The notes beneath the pieces were generated by a model. It worked only from the letters and a program-made list of their open reading frames with translations. It had not been told where the DNA came from and did not search any database. Shown here in pieces: positions 4,486 through 55,287 of a stretch of 64,000 nucleotides of DNA; within the stretch, counting starts at the first letter, position 1, and every line of letters starts with the position of its first letter. The translations under genes were made by a program, and so were the position numbers. The DNA is from a bacterium (GTDB lineage: Bacteria > Zhuqueibacterota > Zhuqueibacteria > Oceanimicrobiales > Oceanimicrobiaceae), in the NCBI GenBank assembly GCA_046757165.1, contig JBHHXT010000005.1, positions 1,396 through 65,395 on the forward strand, written 5' to 3'.

Positions 4486-5142
4486 ACCAAAAGCCTCCTT
4501 TTGTTCGGTTTGTAGGATACAGATGACGCTGTTATCTATTTTACACCGACAGCTTTTTCTTGACTTTTCGACGGGTTCACGAATTCAGAATTAGGGTGTT
4601 CACGTTTTAGCGTGTTGTCCCCTCGCCCAGCAAGCTGAAGTTTGTGAACCGAACACGCCCTTTCAGGAATCGCTCAATTCAGAAAGAAACTCTTTTGGGT
4701 TCCGGCTCCTCGGCTCAGGAAGCAGAGACAAGCTTCTGAGGTCACTTGCTCTCAACTATAACTGACATTTTGCCCGAATAATTCCTGAGCCGGACAAGCC
4801 CCGCAGAAAGCGCGAGGGACTCACTCTATCAAGCGAAAAGATCCTTTTTTTCTGAATGAGTGCAATTTCGAAAACAACTGGGCTGGAATCAATCGAGTCC
4901 ACCGTAGGAGCATTGACATGTGTTGGCGCATACATATCCACAACGTCGCCTGCACAGAACCAGTAACGAATCTCGGCTTAAGCTCCATTTAACCGGTCCG
5001 AGTCGAAATGAAAGTTAGGCGTCTGGTTATTTTGTGGGGATCGAACCTACCAACATCCCGCAGACAAAAAACGAAAATACGCCTACCAATATTTTATGGT
5101 TCAGTTGTATAGCTCGGACAACGTCACAACACCAATTCCACG

Positions 5143-5338
5143 CTGCGCGGGGTTCGGTTGGTGGAATCGAATGGCCGCCACCAGCGTAGTTGCACGCACT
5201 GCTATAAACCCAGTTTTCCGGCATTTCGACAAAGCCTTCCCTGAGCGGGTCGTGGTGCAGGTAAACGCTGTCTGGCCATATCGAGTCCTGTCAAAAAGGT
5301 CTGACGCCTGGGGACTCATCTGTCCGGTTTGGGGGATG
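5143..5338. repeat. Direct repeat R0 copy 1 (about 196 bp), near-identical to 6454-6657
   Basis: Aligned by eye against copy 2: 1 SNP and 1 single-base indel over about 196 bp. Begins CTGCGCGGGGTTCGGTTGGTGGAATCGAATGGCCGCCACCA. Flanks differ on both sides. Confidence 0.9.
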
Positions 5339-6453: not shown

Positions 6454-6657
6454 CCCTCGAACTGCGCGGGGTTCGGTTGGTGGAATCGAATGGCCGCCAC
6501 CAGCGTAGTTGCACGCACTGCTATAAACCCAGTTTTCCGGCATTTCGACAAAGCCTTCCCTGAGCGGGTCGTGGTGCAGGTAAACGCTGTCTGGCCATAT
6601 CGAGTCCTGTCAAAAAGGTCTGACGCCTGGGGACTCATCTGTCCCGTTTGGGGGGAT
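6454..6657. repeat. Direct repeat R0 copy 2
   Basis: Same sequence as 5143-5338. Similarity ends at GGGGGATG on the right. Confidence 0.9.
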
Positions 6658-18763: not shown

Positions 18764-18785
18764 CGTCTCTCCGTTCTTCTAATTA

Positions 18786-18972
18786 AAGTATTGTCGGTAA
18801 TTTCTTTGGATCACTCGTTTGCTGAAAAAACCGTCATTTGAGCTTCGCTCGTCATTTGTTGTCATTTGCCTTGCGGGCGTCATTGAGCAAGCAAGGACCA
18901 AATGACGCCCGCAAGGCAAATGACGGCGCGAAGCGCTAAATGACTTTTTTCGCAGCGAAGTCTGCGAAAAAA
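18786..18972. repeat. MITE-like palindromic dispersed repeat family R1, copy A (about 188 bp)
   Basis: Near-identical to 55099-55287. Internal perfect hairpin TTGCCTTGCGGGCGTCATT...AATGACGCCCGCAAGGCAA and terminal hairpin TTTCGCAGCGAAGTCTGCGAAAAAAA. Lies 22 nt upstream of the moxR start. Confidence 0.85.
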
Positions 18973-18981
18973 AATCGCCGC

Positions 18982-24548: not shown

Positions 24549-25312
24549 TCAGCCCTGGTTGCGCATCTTCAATTTCACAATCTCCTCTTCCGAAAGGCCC
24601 GTAAGGTCTGCAATAACAGAGATTTCCATGCCTCTGGCAAGCATGTTTTGGGCAACGTCACGAATCCCTTCTCTTTTGCCCTCATCTTTCCATCCTTTTC
24701 GTTCTCTCTCAATGGCGGCTTCTAACATAGATCTCACCTCCTCTTTTGATTTGTAGATTCTTTCAAGAGCCTCATAATCAATATCGTCCCTTCGACCGGA
24801 ATGGGCCAATTGCTTGAACCAGTTCAAAAAAAGTGAAACGGCTTGCTTGTCTTCTTGATTCTCAAATAGCCTTATCAACTCTTCCTTTAACAAACCGGTT
24901 TCGTAGAAAGATTCAGCCAAAAACAAGGACGATACAATATTTCTGATTTTGAGCAACTCATCTTTGTCATATTCATTGATAGCTATCTTGAAATATCTAA
25001 AGTTCAGAGCAAAATCACCCAACAGCTTCGGCTCGTCGAGCAACTCCAGGGTGGTAGCATGAGAATACAGATATATGAGTCCTTACCTCTCACTTGCACT
25101 TTGTAGATAACGTCGCTTTCTGTCTTCTTGTAATCCTTGTCTATGAACGATTTCTGCAGCCGTTCGCAGGTATCGAAATCTAAGTCGCCGACCCACGCCT
25201 CGTTGACAAAGCTTTGAATCAGTTGCTGAAAGATGACCTTGTTTGAGAATAGGCGTCCGTATCCTCTGTCGTAGATCTCCCGCATGTCTAAATTAATGAT
25301 ATTTTGGGTCAA
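24549..25312 (-). pseudogene. Rpn/YhgA-like PD-(D/E)XK recombination-promoting nuclease (transposase_31 family), disrupted by a frameshift
   Basis: Two adjacent ORFs (102 aa then 164 aa) in different frames. The upstream piece has ...FSNKVIFQQL...SDVIYKVQVRGKDSYICI. The downstream piece, read upstream of its TTG start, gives YSHATTLELLDEPK...FRYFKIAI and the C-terminal ...ISVIADLTGLSEEEIVKL typical of Rpn proteins. Confidence 0.5.
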
Positions 25313-27682: not shown

Positions 27683-27792
27683 GGTCAATTCCCTTATTTT
27701 CGTGACTTTATGACTGTTCAACCGAAGGCAACAGGGCCACCGATGTTGCTCCCTAACCTGGAGTATTCATCAATTCGTCTCAAAGGCGGCAT

Positions 27793-27990
27793 GAGTCTGG
27801 AGTGAAATGCTTTAGCATTTCATGCAACAGCGTTATCCCAAAAGTCAAAAGCAAGCCATGATTTGTCATTCCTGCGAAAGCAGGTATCCCTAAAAATCAA
27901 TGGGTTATAGATGCCCGCTTTCGCGGGAATAACAAGAAGAGCAGACCTTGTGGTCAGCCCCGTGCAACGCTGAAGCGTTGCACTCCGCCC
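27793..27990. repeat. MITE-like repeat family R2, disrupted copy (core interrupted by about 130-bp hairpin-rich insertion)
   Basis: GGAGTGAAATGCTTTAGCATTTCATGCAAC ... insertion ... GTGCAACGCTGAAGCGTTGCACTCC. Compare the intact core at 30541-30587. Confidence 0.7.
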
Positions 27991-28025
27991 CCCCATCCCG
28001 GTGACACTCGATGTCCTTGCAGTGT

Positions 28026-28445
28026 TCAACCCACAAGGACCTGCTCAACAAAATCCTGGCAATACCTCTTTATCAGCTCGCGCACGCGACGGAACTCCGC
28101 CATGATCTGCTCCTCGGTTCCAGTCGCCTTTGCCGGGTCGGGAAAATCATGATGAACCTTGCGCGCGCGCACTGGAAACACCGGACACCGTTCCCTGGCG
28201 TGGTCGCAAACGGTGATCACGTAGTCGAACTCGATCTGCCGGTACTCGTCAACATGGTTCGAGGTATGGTGTGAGATGTCGATGGTGTCCTCCTGCATCA
28301 CCTGAACCGCGCGCGGATTGACGCCATGGGTTTCCACGCCGGCGCTGTAAATCTCAGCCTTGCCGGCGCAGAAATGGCGCAGGTAGCCCTCGGCGATTTG
28401 GCTGCGACATGAATTACCCGTGCACAAAACGAGTACCTTTTTCAT
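28026..28445 (-). CDS. arsC: Arsenate reductase, LMW-PTP family
   Basis: MKKVLVLCTGNSCRSQIAEGY carries the CX5R P-loop. 139 aa. Last gene of the ars cluster. Confidence 0.85.
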   Translation of the reverse strand: MKKVLVLCTGNSCRSQIAEGYLRHFCAGKAEIYSAGVETHGVNPRAVQVMQEDTIDISHHTSNHVDEYRQIEFDYVITVCDHARERCPVFPVRARKVHHDFPDPAKATGTEEQIMAEFRRVRELIKRYCQDFVEQVLVG

Positions 28446-28894
28446 ATTTTCTTCTCCATGAAGATCGCTGATTCAGGACAGAGCCGGCTGAATTGCTCAT
28501 GGTGCTTGATCGGATCCGGAGCCTCATTCCTTGGCACGGTCACAAAGCCCCGCTTGGCAAAATAGCCTTCTGCGGTCGTGGTCAACAGGTACAGGTGGTG
28601 CACCCCTTGTCGGCGGGCGCACCTCAGGGCTTCCTGGTAAAGCTGGTCGCCAATCTGCCGGTTCCGGTAGGGTTCGGCCACTGCCAGCGAACGCAAAAGA
28701 GCCACCTCTCCATATCGTTCAACGCCAACGGTCCCGACGATTTGGTCCCCGTCAACCGCAACCAGAAATCCTTCCAACCCATGGTCGATGTCATCGACGG
28801 GTAATCCGGCACGTTTGATAAGAACTGCCACATCTGCGCAGTCACCGGGTGTGGCGAGACGCAGGGTAATGGATGGCTGAACCTCATGTTTCAT
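28442..28894 (-). CDS. arsN2: GNAT N-acetyltransferase, ArsN2-like
   Basis: GNAT core DQIVGTVGVERYGEVALLRSLAVAEPYRNRQIG sits between arsM and arsC. Start taken at MKHEV; the longer tracked ORF starts at an upstream TTG. Confidence 0.7.
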   Translation of the reverse strand: MKHEVQPSITLRLATPGDCADVAVLIKRAGLPVDDIDHGLEGFLVAVDGDQIVGTVGVERYGEVALLRSLAVAEPYRNRQIGDQLYQEALRCARRQGVHHLYLLTTTAEGYFAKRGFVTVPRNEAPDPIKHHEQFSRLCPESAIFMEKKI

Positions 28895-28992
28895 GCGGGT
28901 TCTCTCCCAGTAGTCCCTGACGAGTTCTTTTCTGTCACTTTTTGGCAAGACTTTTTTGTGGCACACTTTTTTTCGAGTTTCGAGTTTAGGCG

Positions 28993-29038
28993 CTGAGTTG
29001 TAAAGTCTTGACGTTTTTGGCAAGACTTTACAACTCAG
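28993..29038. promoter_or_regulatory. Perfect 18-bp inverted repeat (stem) with 10-nt loop in arsN2-arsM spacer
   Basis: CTGAGTTGTAAAGTCTTG acgtttttgg CAAGACTTTACAACTCAG. The motif TTTTTGGCAAGACTTT also recurs at 28931. Confidence 0.7.
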
Positions 29039-29140
29039 GGCTGCTGATGACGCTATTATGTAAGTTACAGCGACAATTTTTTTCTAGACTTTTCAAAAAA
29101 CCTTTTTGGTTCCGGCTTGTCCGGGTTAGGAGTTTGCCTG

Positions 29141-29950
29141 TCAATCCTGTCTCCTCTGTCCCGGCTTCTCCGCATAAACGGTGATACTATGAATGCCGGG
29201 ATTCAGTTCTCTGAATTCTGAGATTTCCTGTGGCGACAGGTATTTGGCCAGGAACTGTTCTGGCAGATCGATCTTGCGCTCCTGCTGAACCACCACGTTG
29301 ACAAACCCGGCGGCCTCGATAAGGGCCAAATACTCATGTTTTGGCAGGGCGCCGGCAACGCAGCCGGTGTAGACCGCAGCGGCCTGTTTCAACTTTTCCG
29401 GCAGCTCGCCGCCGGTAACGACGTCAGAGATACTGAAATGACCGCCCGGTTTCAGAATTCTAAATGTCTCCTCGAACGCCTTCTTCTTGTCCGGCACGAG
29501 GTTCAAAACACAGTTGCTCACCACCACATCGGCGCGATTATCCGTAACTGGCAGGTCCTCGATTTCGCCCAGGCGAAAATGGACGTTCTCGTAGCCGAGT
29601 TTTTCTGCATTCTTGCGAGCTTTGGCCACCATGGGTTCCGTCATGTCCACCCCGATCACCTCGCCTGCTTCGCCCACCTCGGCTCGCGCGACGAAGCAAT
29701 CATTGCCAGCGCCGGAACCGAGATCGACAACCGTGTCGCCTTCCTTGATGTGTGCGAACTCGGTGGGTAAGCCACATCCTAACCCCAGGTCAGCGTCTAC
29801 CACATAGCCCTGCACTCGAGAGTAATCATTAGAAAACACAGCGGCGTTCGCCGTTCTCCGGTCACAGCCGCACCCCGTTGTCTCCGCTGCCTGCGCAATC
29901 TCGCCGTACTTGTCCTTCACAACTTGCTTGATGGATTCAGAGGTTAACAT
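29141..29950 (-). CDS. arsM: Arsenite S-adenosylmethionine methyltransferase
   Basis: SAM-binding VVDLGSGAGNDCF. N-terminal GCGCD and downstream CV cysteines typical of ArsM. 269 aa. Confidence 0.85.
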   Translation of the reverse strand: MLTSESIKQVVKDKYGEIAQAAETTGCGCDRRTANAAVFSNDYSRVQGYVVDADLGLGCGLPTEFAHIKEGDTVVDLGSGAGNDCFVARAEVGEAGEVIGVDMTEPMVAKARKNAEKLGYENVHFRLGEIEDLPVTDNRADVVVSNCVLNLVPDKKKAFEETFRILKPGGHFSISDVVTGGELPEKLKQAAAVYTGCVAGALPKHEYLALIEAAGFVNVVVQQERKIDLPEQFLAKYLSPQEISEFRELNPGIHSITVYAEKPGQRRQD

Positions 29951-30013
29951 GGCACTTTCCTTTCTTTTAATCGGTAAAACGCAATATTACGATAATTTGG
30001 AGAAAAAAATTTT

Positions 30014-30331
30014 TCAGCAACAATCCATAGAGCCAAACAGGTCCTGCAACATCGCCTTTGCCTTCTCCCACGCCTCTTTGTCGATGCAGTAGCACACCCT
30101 CGGCCCCTCGACTTCTCCTTTGATGATCCCGATCCGTTTCAACTCTTTCAAATGTTGAGACACCGTCGACTGCGAAAGCGGCAGCACATCAACGAGATCG
30201 CCACAAATACAGGTCTGCTTTCTAACCAGCTGTTGGATGATAGCGACGCGGGCAGGATGAGCAAACGCCTTGGCGAATTCTGCGATTTGATTCTGAGTTT
30301 CGTTGAAGACCTGTGTTTTTGTCAAGCCCAT
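30014..30331 (-). CDS. arsR: ArsR/SmtB-family metalloregulator
   Basis: HTH region with metal-binding CICGDL motif (ELCVCDL-like). 105 aa. First gene of the ars cluster. Confidence 0.85.
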
Positions 30332-30486
30332 TTGGTTGATCAGAGGTTAAACATTAATCGTTATATCGCAATATAACGATAGTTGTTTCAAAACGCAAGT
30401 TTTTTTCTGCTAAAGAGATGTGGGAGAGTAAACTGTAAAAAAGATCCAGAAATGATCCAACACGGCCTGTGACCGTGTTTTTTTGA

Positions 30487-30660
30487 CTAGCCTGGATAAT
30501 TCATGAATTTCGCCCAACAAGGGGCAACAGGTAAGGAGTGAAATGCTTTAGCATTTCATGCAACGCTAAAGCGTTGCACTCCTCTTTGTCCCGTTAAGTT
30601 AGCCATAATCAAGCGCTTATATGAATACTTGCTAATCTCTTGTGAATAATCCAGACTAGG
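30487..30660. repeat. MITE-like repeat family R2, intact copy with terminal inverted repeats
   Basis: TIRs CTAGCCTGGATAATTCA ... TGAATAATCCAGACTAG. Core GGAGTG-[AAATGCTTTAGCATTT]-CA-[TGCAACGCTAAAGCGTTGCA]-CTCC can be drawn as a three-way junction. Confidence 0.8.
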
Positions 30661-42216: not shown

Positions 42217-42613
42217 GGTTCGATGGAGGCAACTCCTTCAGTTTTGTATTTAGTTCAGACTCGTTCACAGTCTGGACCAGCCGTGGGTCAACATGGCTAG
42301 CCGCCTTGGCCAGGTCAGAATTTCGAAGCAACATTCCCCTCACCATCTCCACGATCTCTGAACCGAAATCACAAGAAGACGCGCAGAACCAGCTCAGGCC
42401 AAACCCACCTCTGAAAACGAACAAGTTCGTTTTCGGTCTCCTCCCCGGAGGAGATTTACCCCGCTCCCCTCCCGGGAGAGGACAGGTTCAGACAGGTTCA
42501 GAGTCTGAACCAGGAGTGGGTCAACATGGCCAGGCTTTCTGATTGGTTTTGCTTTACCACGCTAATTGTATAGTAATCATTTCTAGTCAAAAAAACAAGC
42601 TCCGAGCCTCAGG

Positions 42614-46803: not shown

Positions 46804-47115
46804 ATGTTAAACTCAAAGAACCCATTTTCCTGGATAGAGACCATGTGCTGTTTTTACGAAGCCAAGACACTGAAGCTCAACAACAAAGACATCCCGACGG
46901 AGCCGACCGAGCAGCCGGACTTGATTCGCATCCGCACAAAGTTCGCGGGCCAGCGTTGTCCGGTATGCCTGGGATATGGCCGACTGAAGTGTCTCGACTG
47001 TGAAGGCGGGCGGGTTGCTTTTCTGGGCGGTTTCCAGCAATGCGGACGGTGCCTGGGGGCAGGGATCAGGGCGTGCGCGGTCTGTGAGGCCCATGGCTTC
47101 ATCAGGCCCGCTTAA
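46804..47115 (+). CDS. Small protein with DnaJ-CR-like zinc finger (4x CxxC)
   Basis: CPVCLGYGRLKCLDCEGG ... CGRCLGAGIRACAVCEAHG. Start uncertain among 46759, 46804 and 46843. Confidence 0.55.
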   Translation: MLNSKNPFSWIETMCCFYEAKTLKLNNKDIPTEPTEQPDLIRIRTKFAGQRCPVCLGYGRLKCLDCEGGRVAFLGGFQQCGRCLGAGIRACAVCEAHGFIRPA

Positions 47116-47162
47116 CCTCACGCGCTCTCCGCTGAAGAGCGGTCAAGCAAACACGCCGATGG

Positions 47163-47196
47163 CGATCCAACACGGTCTCTGACCGTGTTTTTTTTA
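47163..47196 (+). terminator. Rho-independent terminator-like hairpin + T-run (repeat family R5; second copy 30459-30488)
   Basis: GATCCAACACGGTCTCTGACCGTGTTTTTTTT follows the Zn-finger gene. A near-identical 31-nt copy at 30459 directly abuts the R2 MITE. Confidence 0.6.
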
Positions 47197-48228: not shown

Positions 48229-48336
48229 GTGCTCCTCCTTATTTTGTTAAACGTAGGGTCAAAAGTTTGTTTGACGGTGCACGACTCTGTTCTGCTGTCT
48301 TCGCTTGCATCCCGGCCTCAAGAGACACGGCTTTAG

Positions 48337-48455
48337 CATTTCATGCAACGCTAAAGCGTTGCACTCCTCTTTATCTCTTTAAGATATGCATAATCAAACA
48401 CTTATACGAATACTTGCTAATCTCTTGTGAATAATCCAGGCTAGTTTGTCTGTCG
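48337..48455. repeat. R2 family partial copy (lacks left TIR); its terminal CTAG supplies the stop codon of the adjacent VKOR gene
   Basis: GCTTTAGCATTTCATGCAACGCTAAAGCGTTGCACTCC ... GTGAATAATCCAGGCTAG. The minus-strand TAG stop of 48441-49748 is the CTA of CTAG. Confidence 0.75.
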
Positions 48456-49748: not shown

Positions 49749-50357
49749 TTTGAAATCGTATATGAGAAGTTAGACTGGATTATTCCTAGCGCGGCAAAGC
49801 CGCAATAAAATTATGAACCGCAAAGACGCAAAACTCGCAAAGGTTCCAATCTTAAGAGACGGGCTCTAACGATCAGTCAATAATCTATCGTATTTTGACC
49901 TTTGCGTTCATTGCGTCTTTGCGGTTTAGTTTTCTTGCAAGAAAATGCAAAAGTTCGGCGGTAATACTCTAATGCAGCAACGTTGCAAATGAATGGAACG
50001 CTGGATTTAACGGATTTGCACGGAACTGAATTTGGTCCGATCCGTGTTCCATCTTTTGCACTTTTAGACGGAGAACACGCAGCGTTCAGGTATTTTCAGC
50101 TATTTCCGCCGCCATCTGAAAAACAAACATTACGAAATATACAAGAAAGGATCAAATAAACAACATATTTTCCCGCGTTGTCGTGTGCCTATCTCGATTG
50201 CGTGAGACATAATCAAAAGGCCCCTGAAATCACAGGGGCCCTTTATGGGAGGAGGAAGAGTAATCAGAACATCGAATGAACTGGTCGTTTATGACGCCAA
50301 AATCAGTGCGATGTTTCATCGCCACCGGCTGATGAACGTCCGGCTGCTGGTTGGCTC

Positions 50358-55093: not shown

Positions 55094-55098
55094 CGACA

Positions 55099-55287
55099 AA
55101 GTATTGTCGATAATTTTTTGGGTCAACCGTTTGCTGAAAAAACGGCCATTTTGAGCTTCGCTCGTCATTTGCTGTCATTTGCCCTGCGGGCGTCATTGAG
55201 CAAGCAAGGACCGAATGACGCCGTTGGCAAGTGACGGCGCGAAGCGCTAGATGACTTCTTTCGCAGCGAAGTCTGCGAAAAAAATTA
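55099..55287. repeat. MITE-like repeat family R1, copy B
   Basis: About 90% identical by eye to 18786-18972 in the same orientation. Lies only a few nt upstream of the start chosen for the DUF1800 gene. Confidence 0.85.

Follow-up and report, generated by a model that had tools for sequence, protein, structure and literature searches.

The 64-kb stretch of contig JBHHXT010000005.1 analyzed here (the window) belongs to an uncultured lineage whose nearest sampled relatives include metagenome-assembled genomes (MAGs) of candidate division KSB1. It contains a four-gene arsenic cluster, arsR-arsM-arsN2-arsC, with a copy of a short intergenic repeat, R2, on either side. An earlier note on this DNA had proposed that the flanking R2 copies mobilised or delimited the ars module as a unit. 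The genes and the repeat family are both real, and R2 is a genuine miniature inverted-repeat transposable element (MITE): it has terminal inverted repeats (TIRs) and duplicates its target site, it codes for nothing, and several copies occur in the window. The proposed mobilisation is not supported, as relatives carry the same cluster free of R2, and the cluster is very probably a resident chromosomal operon. The genes and R2 copies are located as follows.

28026–28445, minus strand: arsC, thioredoxin-coupled arsenate reductase of the low-molecular-weight phosphatase (LMWP) type, 139 aa; Pfam LMWPc.
28442–28894, minus strand: arsN2, GNAT N-acetyltransferase, 150 aa counted from the ATG; NCBIfam resist_ArsN2, 154.8 bits (cutoff 125).
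29141–29950, minus strand: arsM, arsenite S-adenosylmethionine methyltransferase, 269 aa; NCBIfam PRK11873, 345.5 bits (cutoff 263).
30014–30331, minus strand: arsR, ArsR/SmtB metalloregulator, 105 aa; Pfam HTH_5 and HTH_20, NCBIfam HTH_metalloreg, 69.8 bits (cutoff 55).
30487–30659, plus strand: R2 copy A, intact MITE, 173 bp; CTAG target duplications at 30487–30490 and 30656–30659, TIRs at 30491–30503 (CCTGGATAATTCA) and 30643–30655 (TGAATAATCCAGA).
27753–27986, plus strand: R2 copy B, decayed and truncated MITE; CTAA flank at 27753–27756, diverged left TIR and arm at 27757–27798, 5' part of the core at 27799–27828, insert at 27829–27963, 3' part of the core at 27964–27986.
48330–48444, plus strand: R2 copy C, left half missing; retains the core's 3' part with the right arm and TIR, at 91% identity to copy A across 115 nt.
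49770–49786: lone TIR-like end, TTAGACTGGATTATTCC.

Open reading frames (ORFs) and family models agree on the four ars genes, whose placement at 28026–30331 on the minus strand stands as first described. ArsR, ArsM and ArsN2 all exceed their NCBIfam cutoffs and ArsC is recognized through Pfam LMWPc, its score against the NCBIfam model arsC_pI258_fam (TIGR02691) being 163.4 bits, 11 below the equivalog cutoff of 174.3; a family model thus recognizes each of the four genes. The genes arsN2 and arsC overlap by 4 nt. The neighboring genes share this strand and encode an M28 peptidase and an AlkZ-like glycosylase upstream of arsR, and a DUF885-like protein and a HAD hydrolase downstream of arsC.

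R2 is present in three copies in the window, one of them intact and all in plus orientation, far beyond chance (0 expected). The intact copy that had been reported upstream of the ars genes is copy A, whose terminal inverted repeats, CTAGCCTGGATAATTCA and TGAATAATCCAGACTAG, are complementary at 15/17 positions. A left arm of 31 nt and a right arm of 60 nt surround a 48-nt core at 30535–30582, and the whole is predicted to fold into a TIR-closed hairpin with a three-way junction in the core (z = -4.6). Only spurious ORFs cross copy A, in keeping with a short non-coding MITE. The disrupted copy reported downstream is also confirmed, and its core is indeed split by a hairpin-rich insert of 135 nt; its bounds are 27753–27986 and not 27793–27990. 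Copy B begins with CTAA and a diverged left repeat (CTAACCTGGAGTATTCA; TIR CCTGGAGTATTCA); this outer TIR matches at 15/17 positions, and the left arms of copies A and B are homologous (0/2000 shuffles reached the score of their alignment). It has no right arm: the sequence after the core scores like shuffled sequence (p=0.8). A decayed right arm hidden in the 3' end of arsC, whose stop codon lies 39 nt past the core, was considered and ruled out, as the alignment was no better than shuffles.

The VKOR-thioredoxin gene upstream of copy C has a stop codon that coincides in part with the CTAG flank of the element (48441–48444), and since YTAR targets contain TAA or TAG, stop codons may be frequent landing sites of R2-type MITEs. 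This one gene is bracketed by copy C and the TIR at 49770. The lone end is followed by ~170 nt with inverted GAACCGCAAAGACGCAA motifs, and the segment 49770–49940 probably represents a TIR-superfamily element that has decayed and whose interior differs from that of R2. Neither the window nor the loci of the relatives yielded any further diverged core to a covariance model of the 48 nt, and exact-core scans of collections of genome contigs and metagenome contigs gave no match.

The most direct evidence on the history of the operon comes from two relatives, GCA_964629935.1 and GCA_029261995.1. In each of them the four genes follow one another as in the window, arsR-arsM-arsN2-arsC, and arsN2 and arsC again overlap by 4 nt. 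Their ars proteins are 56–83% identical to those of the window (arsR 80–83%), and the flanking housekeeping genes 62–76%. Short spacers flank the ars operons of the relatives, of 89 and 322 nt on the upstream side and of 46 and 121 nt on the downstream side. TIR, arm and core of R2 are all absent from these spacers, and neither TIR nor core was found within 8 kb on each side of the operons. The contig of GCA_029261995.1 is collinear with the window in a tblastn comparison through an MscS channel, a 394-aa gene, DUF2157, a 5'-nucleotidase and the ars operon; the only difference there is that in the window the 5'-nucleotidase is separated from arsR by the M28 peptidase and AlkZ-like genes and by R2 copy A. 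The DUF885–HAD pair of that genome lies three genes downstream of its AlkZ-like gene. In GCA_964629935.1, arsC is directly followed by the orthologue of the window's HAD hydrolase, and an AlkZ-like gene is 4 kb away. Shared order and neighbors in the two relatives imply that the ars operon stood among this set of genes before the lineages diverged. Elsewhere, the nearest homologues of ArsM are 73% and 68% identical, with no near-identical ArsM, and that of the flanking DUF885-like protein is 68% identical.

Composition gives the same picture: the GC content of the ars genes (0.55–0.58) equals that of the flanking genes, which does not suggest a genomic island, and the 64-kb window holds no tRNA or tmRNA gene that could serve as an attachment site with an adjacent integrase. 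The bracketing itself was assessed by simulation: 3 or 4 copies were distributed randomly over the 33 intergenic regions of the window, and a block of ≤3.5 kb between any pair was counted as bracketed. Such a block arose in 27% of simulations with 3 copies and in 47–48% with 4 copies, so that R2-type copies are dense enough to flank a ~3-kb block by chance. The two circumstances that the earlier note had itself named as fatal to mobilisation, relatives with the cluster in a partly conserved neighborhood without R2 and a repeat abundant enough for chance bracketing, are therefore both essentially what was found. We consider it very likely that the ars cluster is a long-resident, vertically inherited chromosomal operon and that the flanking R2 copies are incidental, independent insertions. 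On this view, the position of the two copies beside the operon reflects the tendency of MITEs to collect between genes, in a window that is rich in them, and no part in moving or defining the operon.

The nature of R2 was further examined through its ends. Metagenomes were searched for two TIR 12-mers 125–155 nt apart, with the interior unconstrained, and the pattern recovered 90 loci with elements of ~150–180 bp and the terminal repeat CCTGGATWATTCA(Y)GAA. The interiors of these 90 loci are unrelated and range from AT-rich to very GC-rich; the feature that they share is therefore the end recognized by a transposase. The base adjoining CTGG is C or G in 72 of 83 non-redundant elements. Among the 4-mers flanking these 83 elements, CTAG is the most frequent (31 on the left, 34 on the right), followed by TTAG/CTAA and then TTAA, and 41 elements have identical 4-mers on both sides. 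Where the flanking 4-mers are non-palindromic, they form direct repeats in 16 cases and an inverted repeat in 1, which indicates a 4-bp target-site duplication with the consensus YTAR and rules out the first candidate, a 2-bp TA duplication of the IS630/mariner type. A 4-bp YTAR duplication is a documented signature of IS5 (PMC5009759, PMC10359306), and the ends of the R2 superfamily show the form of duplication expected of IS5-type mobilisation.

No autonomous parent was detected: the fetched loci hold no TIR pair 0.7–2.5 kb apart with a transposase ORF, only further MITEs, and neither they nor the window encode an IS5-family transposase. BLAST against plasmids with the TIR palindrome and a high-GC superfamily member as queries gave no match. 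The TIR string was not found in the searchable literature, where looking for it returned only unrelated PCR primers, and a search combining the IS1380 family, CTAG and MITE returned nothing relevant. The TIR superfamily of R2, with at least 90 unrelated elements in metagenomes, is very widespread and, as far as could be found, undescribed. The TIR CCTGGATWATTCA together with a 4-bp YTAR duplication offers a simple diagnostic for annotating metagenomes and for explaining contig breaks. One member is located between two large ORFs of the predicted viral contig IMGVR_UViG_3300031452_000089 (positions 1053–1243 of fetched locus L095), so that elements of this superfamily also reach phage genomes. 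Only one of the metagenome elements, L028, has the R2 core, and the arm of copy B is visibly closer to L028, which comes from another metagenome, than to copy A.

The core itself is a three-way junction, in which GGAG/CTCC closes two perfect hairpins, AAATGC-TTTA-GCATTT and GCAACGC-TAAA-GCGTTGC. Pairwise comparisons of identical positions reveal that it is conserved on a par with the TIRs while the arms decay.

Copy A versus L028: core 43/48, non-TIR arms 40/92, TIRs 24/26; Fisher p (core versus arms) 7e-8.
Copy A versus copy B: core 30/30, non-TIR arms 16/31, TIRs 11/13; Fisher p 6e-6.
Copy A versus copy C: core 38/38, non-TIR arms 51/60, TIRs 12/13; Fisher p 0.011.

A two-anchor scan of 185,579 species genomes identified one more core, in candidate division KSB1 bacterium OFTM72 (JAJDAG010000100.1; positions 5085–5132 of fetched locus L100). 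This copy is free-standing, without arms or TIRs, and matches at 45/48 positions, all three changes being in loops or at the junction. It is found in a 54-nt spacer that starts at the stop codon of a 776-aa gene, and this stop codon falls inside the core; the ATG of the next ORF is at ~5144. Among the four cores, no compensatory changes were seen in helices 2 and 3, the helices assessed, and the core has no Rfam match at gathering or permissive thresholds. The core may have a function as a module, or it may simply be a hairpin required by the MITE. In its stronger form, the first of these options would make the core a module in its own right, such as a structured signal in DNA or RNA or a site for protein binding, that one lineage of a widespread IS5-type MITE superfamily carries as cargo and that also occurs free-standing. 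We consider this unlikely; if true, it would mean selection on the core, for propagation of the element or for a host function. The double-hairpin module might merit study if more KSB1-like genomes appear.

The reading of the operon as resident and of its R2 copies as incidental has to be weighed against several points. Because the two copies have the same orientation, the outermost ends (left TIR of B, right TIR of A) form an inverted pair, as a composite transposon would require. What directly flanks the operon is different in each of the three genomes, and both of the window's junctions carry R2. No close relative above ~83% amino acid identity was found in any collection examined, and we infer an IS5-type transposase as the mobiliser of R2 from the pattern of target duplications only. 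The inverted outer ends are the starting point for a MITE-flanked composite, in which the left TIR of B and the right TIR of A would have served as the ends for a transposase that brought the 2.9-kb ars segment to this site as a unit. The outer flanks (c-TA..., ...TA-g) read jointly even give a preferred CTAG-like target, and the ars genes fill the slot between the AlkZ-like and DUF885 genes that on contig 29 of GCA_029261995.1 is held by three other genes. We nevertheless regard a composite as highly improbable. Inspection of the target-site duplications, which the earlier note had recommended, found that copy A has its own matched CTAG/CTAG pair, as expected of a simple insertion, and that the outer flanks of the would-be composite are unlike, CTAA (27753–27756) versus CTAG (30656–30659). 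Nor are the two copies closely related with intact outer ends: copy B has a degenerate outer TIR and is missing the inner arm, and the non-TIR left arms match at only 16/31 aligned positions, so that A and B are not recent sister copies. With two of three copies truncated, R2 is, judging from the copies themselves, an old, decaying family and not a recently active pair. The putative cargo is present in relatives without the MITE, one of them collinear on the arsR side, and the segment shows neither a compositional signal nor a protein divergence different from that of its flanking genes.

The differing flanks point in another direction, namely that the R2 copies are scars or substrates of local rearrangement that shuffled genes around a stable ars operon. 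Such events would account for the loss of the right arm of B exactly on the arsC side and for the missing left half of C; both synteny breaks of the window coincide with R2, two of the three copies being truncated on one side, and the neighbors differ in the three genomes, yet the AlkZ-like, DUF885, HAD and 5'-nucleotidase genes stay nearby. The coincidence is weak, however, since breaks and MITEs are both confined to intergenic DNA; homologous recombination would yield whole chimeric copies and not halves, and many unrelated rearrangements are expected at 56–83% amino acid identity. We hold this explanation to be doubtful. It is improbable, too, that the core is a functional structured element affecting expression of the ars operon or its neighbors, with a position beside the operon maintained by selection. 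Its conservation far above that of the arms and the free-standing copy between two genes of the KSB1 MAG speak for a function; the absence of Rfam matches and of compensatory changes speaks against, and the hairpins lack a subsequent U-tract on the strand that carries the flanking genes, two changes in L028 that are compatible with wobble pairing favor opposite strands, the core is disrupted in copy B, and the ars operons of the relatives do without it. Under vertical inheritance with incidental insertion, copy A would have inserted alone, at a CTAG in the spacer that separates the AlkZ-like gene from the arsR promoter, and copy B would be an older, diverged copy upstream of the DUF885-like gene that may later have lost its right arm and gained the 135-nt palindromic insertion, the order of these events being the likely one. 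For arsenic biology this has little consequence: the cluster is a standard inherited detoxification cluster, and the idea of a mobile island can be dropped.

The insert (27829–27963) splits the core of copy B at 27828/27964 and is bordered by direct repeats of GCAAC (27824–27828 and 27964–27968) that resemble a 5-bp target duplication. It contains two inverted REP-like hairpins, ATTCCTGCGAAAGCAGGTAT and ATGCCCGCTTTCGCGGGAAT, that jointly form a stem of ~30 bp. An independent Logan assembly contains all 135 nt at 100% identity and a second covers 109 nt, which shows that the split of copy B is not an assembly artefact. The segment plausibly behaves like an insertion into copy B. In an alternative register, its first 6 nt (AGCGTT) repeat part of hairpin 2; this register is less economical, as it needs a 16-nt duplication plus a 5-nt deletion. 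No second copy of the insert occurs in the window, the fetched loci or the viral contigs, and a protein search with the spurious ORF spanning it gave no match. Its sole matches are weak or borderline similarities of 31–34 nt to hairpins of Neisseria repeats, and Rfam searches at gathering and permissive thresholds returned only chance microRNA-like hairpin matches on R2 and on the insert. An assignment to a widespread "VIPAKAGI/FRRND" hairpin repeat found no support, with no other copy and a single irrelevant paper in the literature search. The idea of a MITE inserted into a MITE is thus reasonable, the outer element being a MITE and the insert having GCAAC borders, and stays unconfirmed as to the inner one, of which no second copy was found.

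Two palindromic sites, read from the sequence, may serve in regulation of the operon.

30357–30380, upstream of arsR: putative ArsR operator, a palindrome of 10+4+10 nt, ATCGTTATAT-CGCA-ATATAACGAT.
29970–29993, upstream of arsM: second putative operator-like site, identical to the arsR-upstream palindrome at 19/24 positions.

Palindromes related to the site at 30357–30380 are also found upstream of arsR in both relatives, and the palindromes upstream of arsR and arsM are probably ArsR operators. With a putative operator ahead of each, arsR and arsM-N2-C would be controlled separately. The ars cluster of the window includes no gene for arsenite efflux (arsB or acr3).

The spacer between arsM and arsN2 (28895–29140) is 246 nt long in the window and 108–120 nt in the two relatives. 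It contains a perfect 18-bp hairpin (arms at 28993–29010 and 29021–29038) and a repeated TTTTGGCAAGACTTT motif, and independent Logan contigs stop on either side of the hairpin, at ~28941 and ~29103. These features point to another small repeat or insertion here, or to variation between strains. Look-ups of exact proteins gave nothing but short Logan contigs, which break within R2 copy A, the arsM-arsN2 spacer and the insert of copy B; for the AlkZ-like protein they returned no record.

A terminator-like hairpin with a T-run occurs twice on the plus strand, at 30454–30486 and 47164–47196, with 36/42 nt identical. The first abuts R2 copy A and has no plus-strand gene upstream, only a possible short transcript divergent from arsR; the second ends a small CxxC-rich plus-strand ORF (~46844–47116). 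At 24549–25312 on the minus strand, in a trough of GC content (0.40–0.45 versus ~0.55), two overlapping ORFs make up a split YhgA/Rpn-like gene (Pfam Transposase_31); it lies 2.7 kb downstream of the ars cluster and is probably a decayed foreign gene. The window segment is generally rich in small intergenic repeats. A 193-nt pair (5143–5335 and 6462–6654) with 99% identity brackets one gene, and a hairpin-rich pair of ~190 nt (18785–18973 and 55098–55284) with 84–96% identity is separated by 36 kb. At 42402–42457 on the minus strand, a full-length match to the Rfam whalefall-1 RNA motif (43.3 bits, gathering score 37) is bordered by 85%-identical direct repeats of 48 nt (42253–42300 and 42486–42533) in a spacer between two minus-strand genes.

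Among the bacterial MITEs that DDE transposases mobilise in trans are Correia elements in Neisseria, RUP in Streptococcus pneumoniae and Nezha in cyanobacteria. R2 resembles them in its size of ~170 bp, the lack of an ORF, TIRs of 13–17 bp, a short target-site duplication, an intergenic location, diverged or truncated copies and a fold-back structure. It differs in its TIR, CCTGGATWATTCA, in a 4-bp YTAR duplication where those families have TA, and in a strongly conserved 48-nt internal double hairpin that also occurs free-standing. With the IS5 group of IS5 it shares the 4-bp target-site duplication of consensus YTAR; its TIRs, by contrast, are unlike what we take to be the ends of IS5, and their tip, CCTnGATT, is presumably reminiscent of ends of the IS1380 family such as those of ISEcp1, an unconfirmed lead only. 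Known resistance units flanked by MITEs are the integron mobilisation unit around blaGES-5 and the class 1 integrons of Acinetobacter flanked by 439-bp MITEs, and such units have near-identical flanking copies, a common outer target-site duplication and related backbones from which the unit is missing. The ars locus is similar in having two MITE copies in the same orientation around a resistance module of ~2.3 kb, and dissimilar in that the copies are diverged, one is truncated, the outer flanks differ and the module of the relatives is free of MITEs. With chromosomal arsM/arsN2 operons it shares ArsR, ArsM, ArsN2, a thioredoxin-type ArsC and operator-like palindromes upstream of arsR and arsM; it departs from them in having neither arsB nor acr3 in the cluster and in a four-gene order that is kept in two distant relatives.

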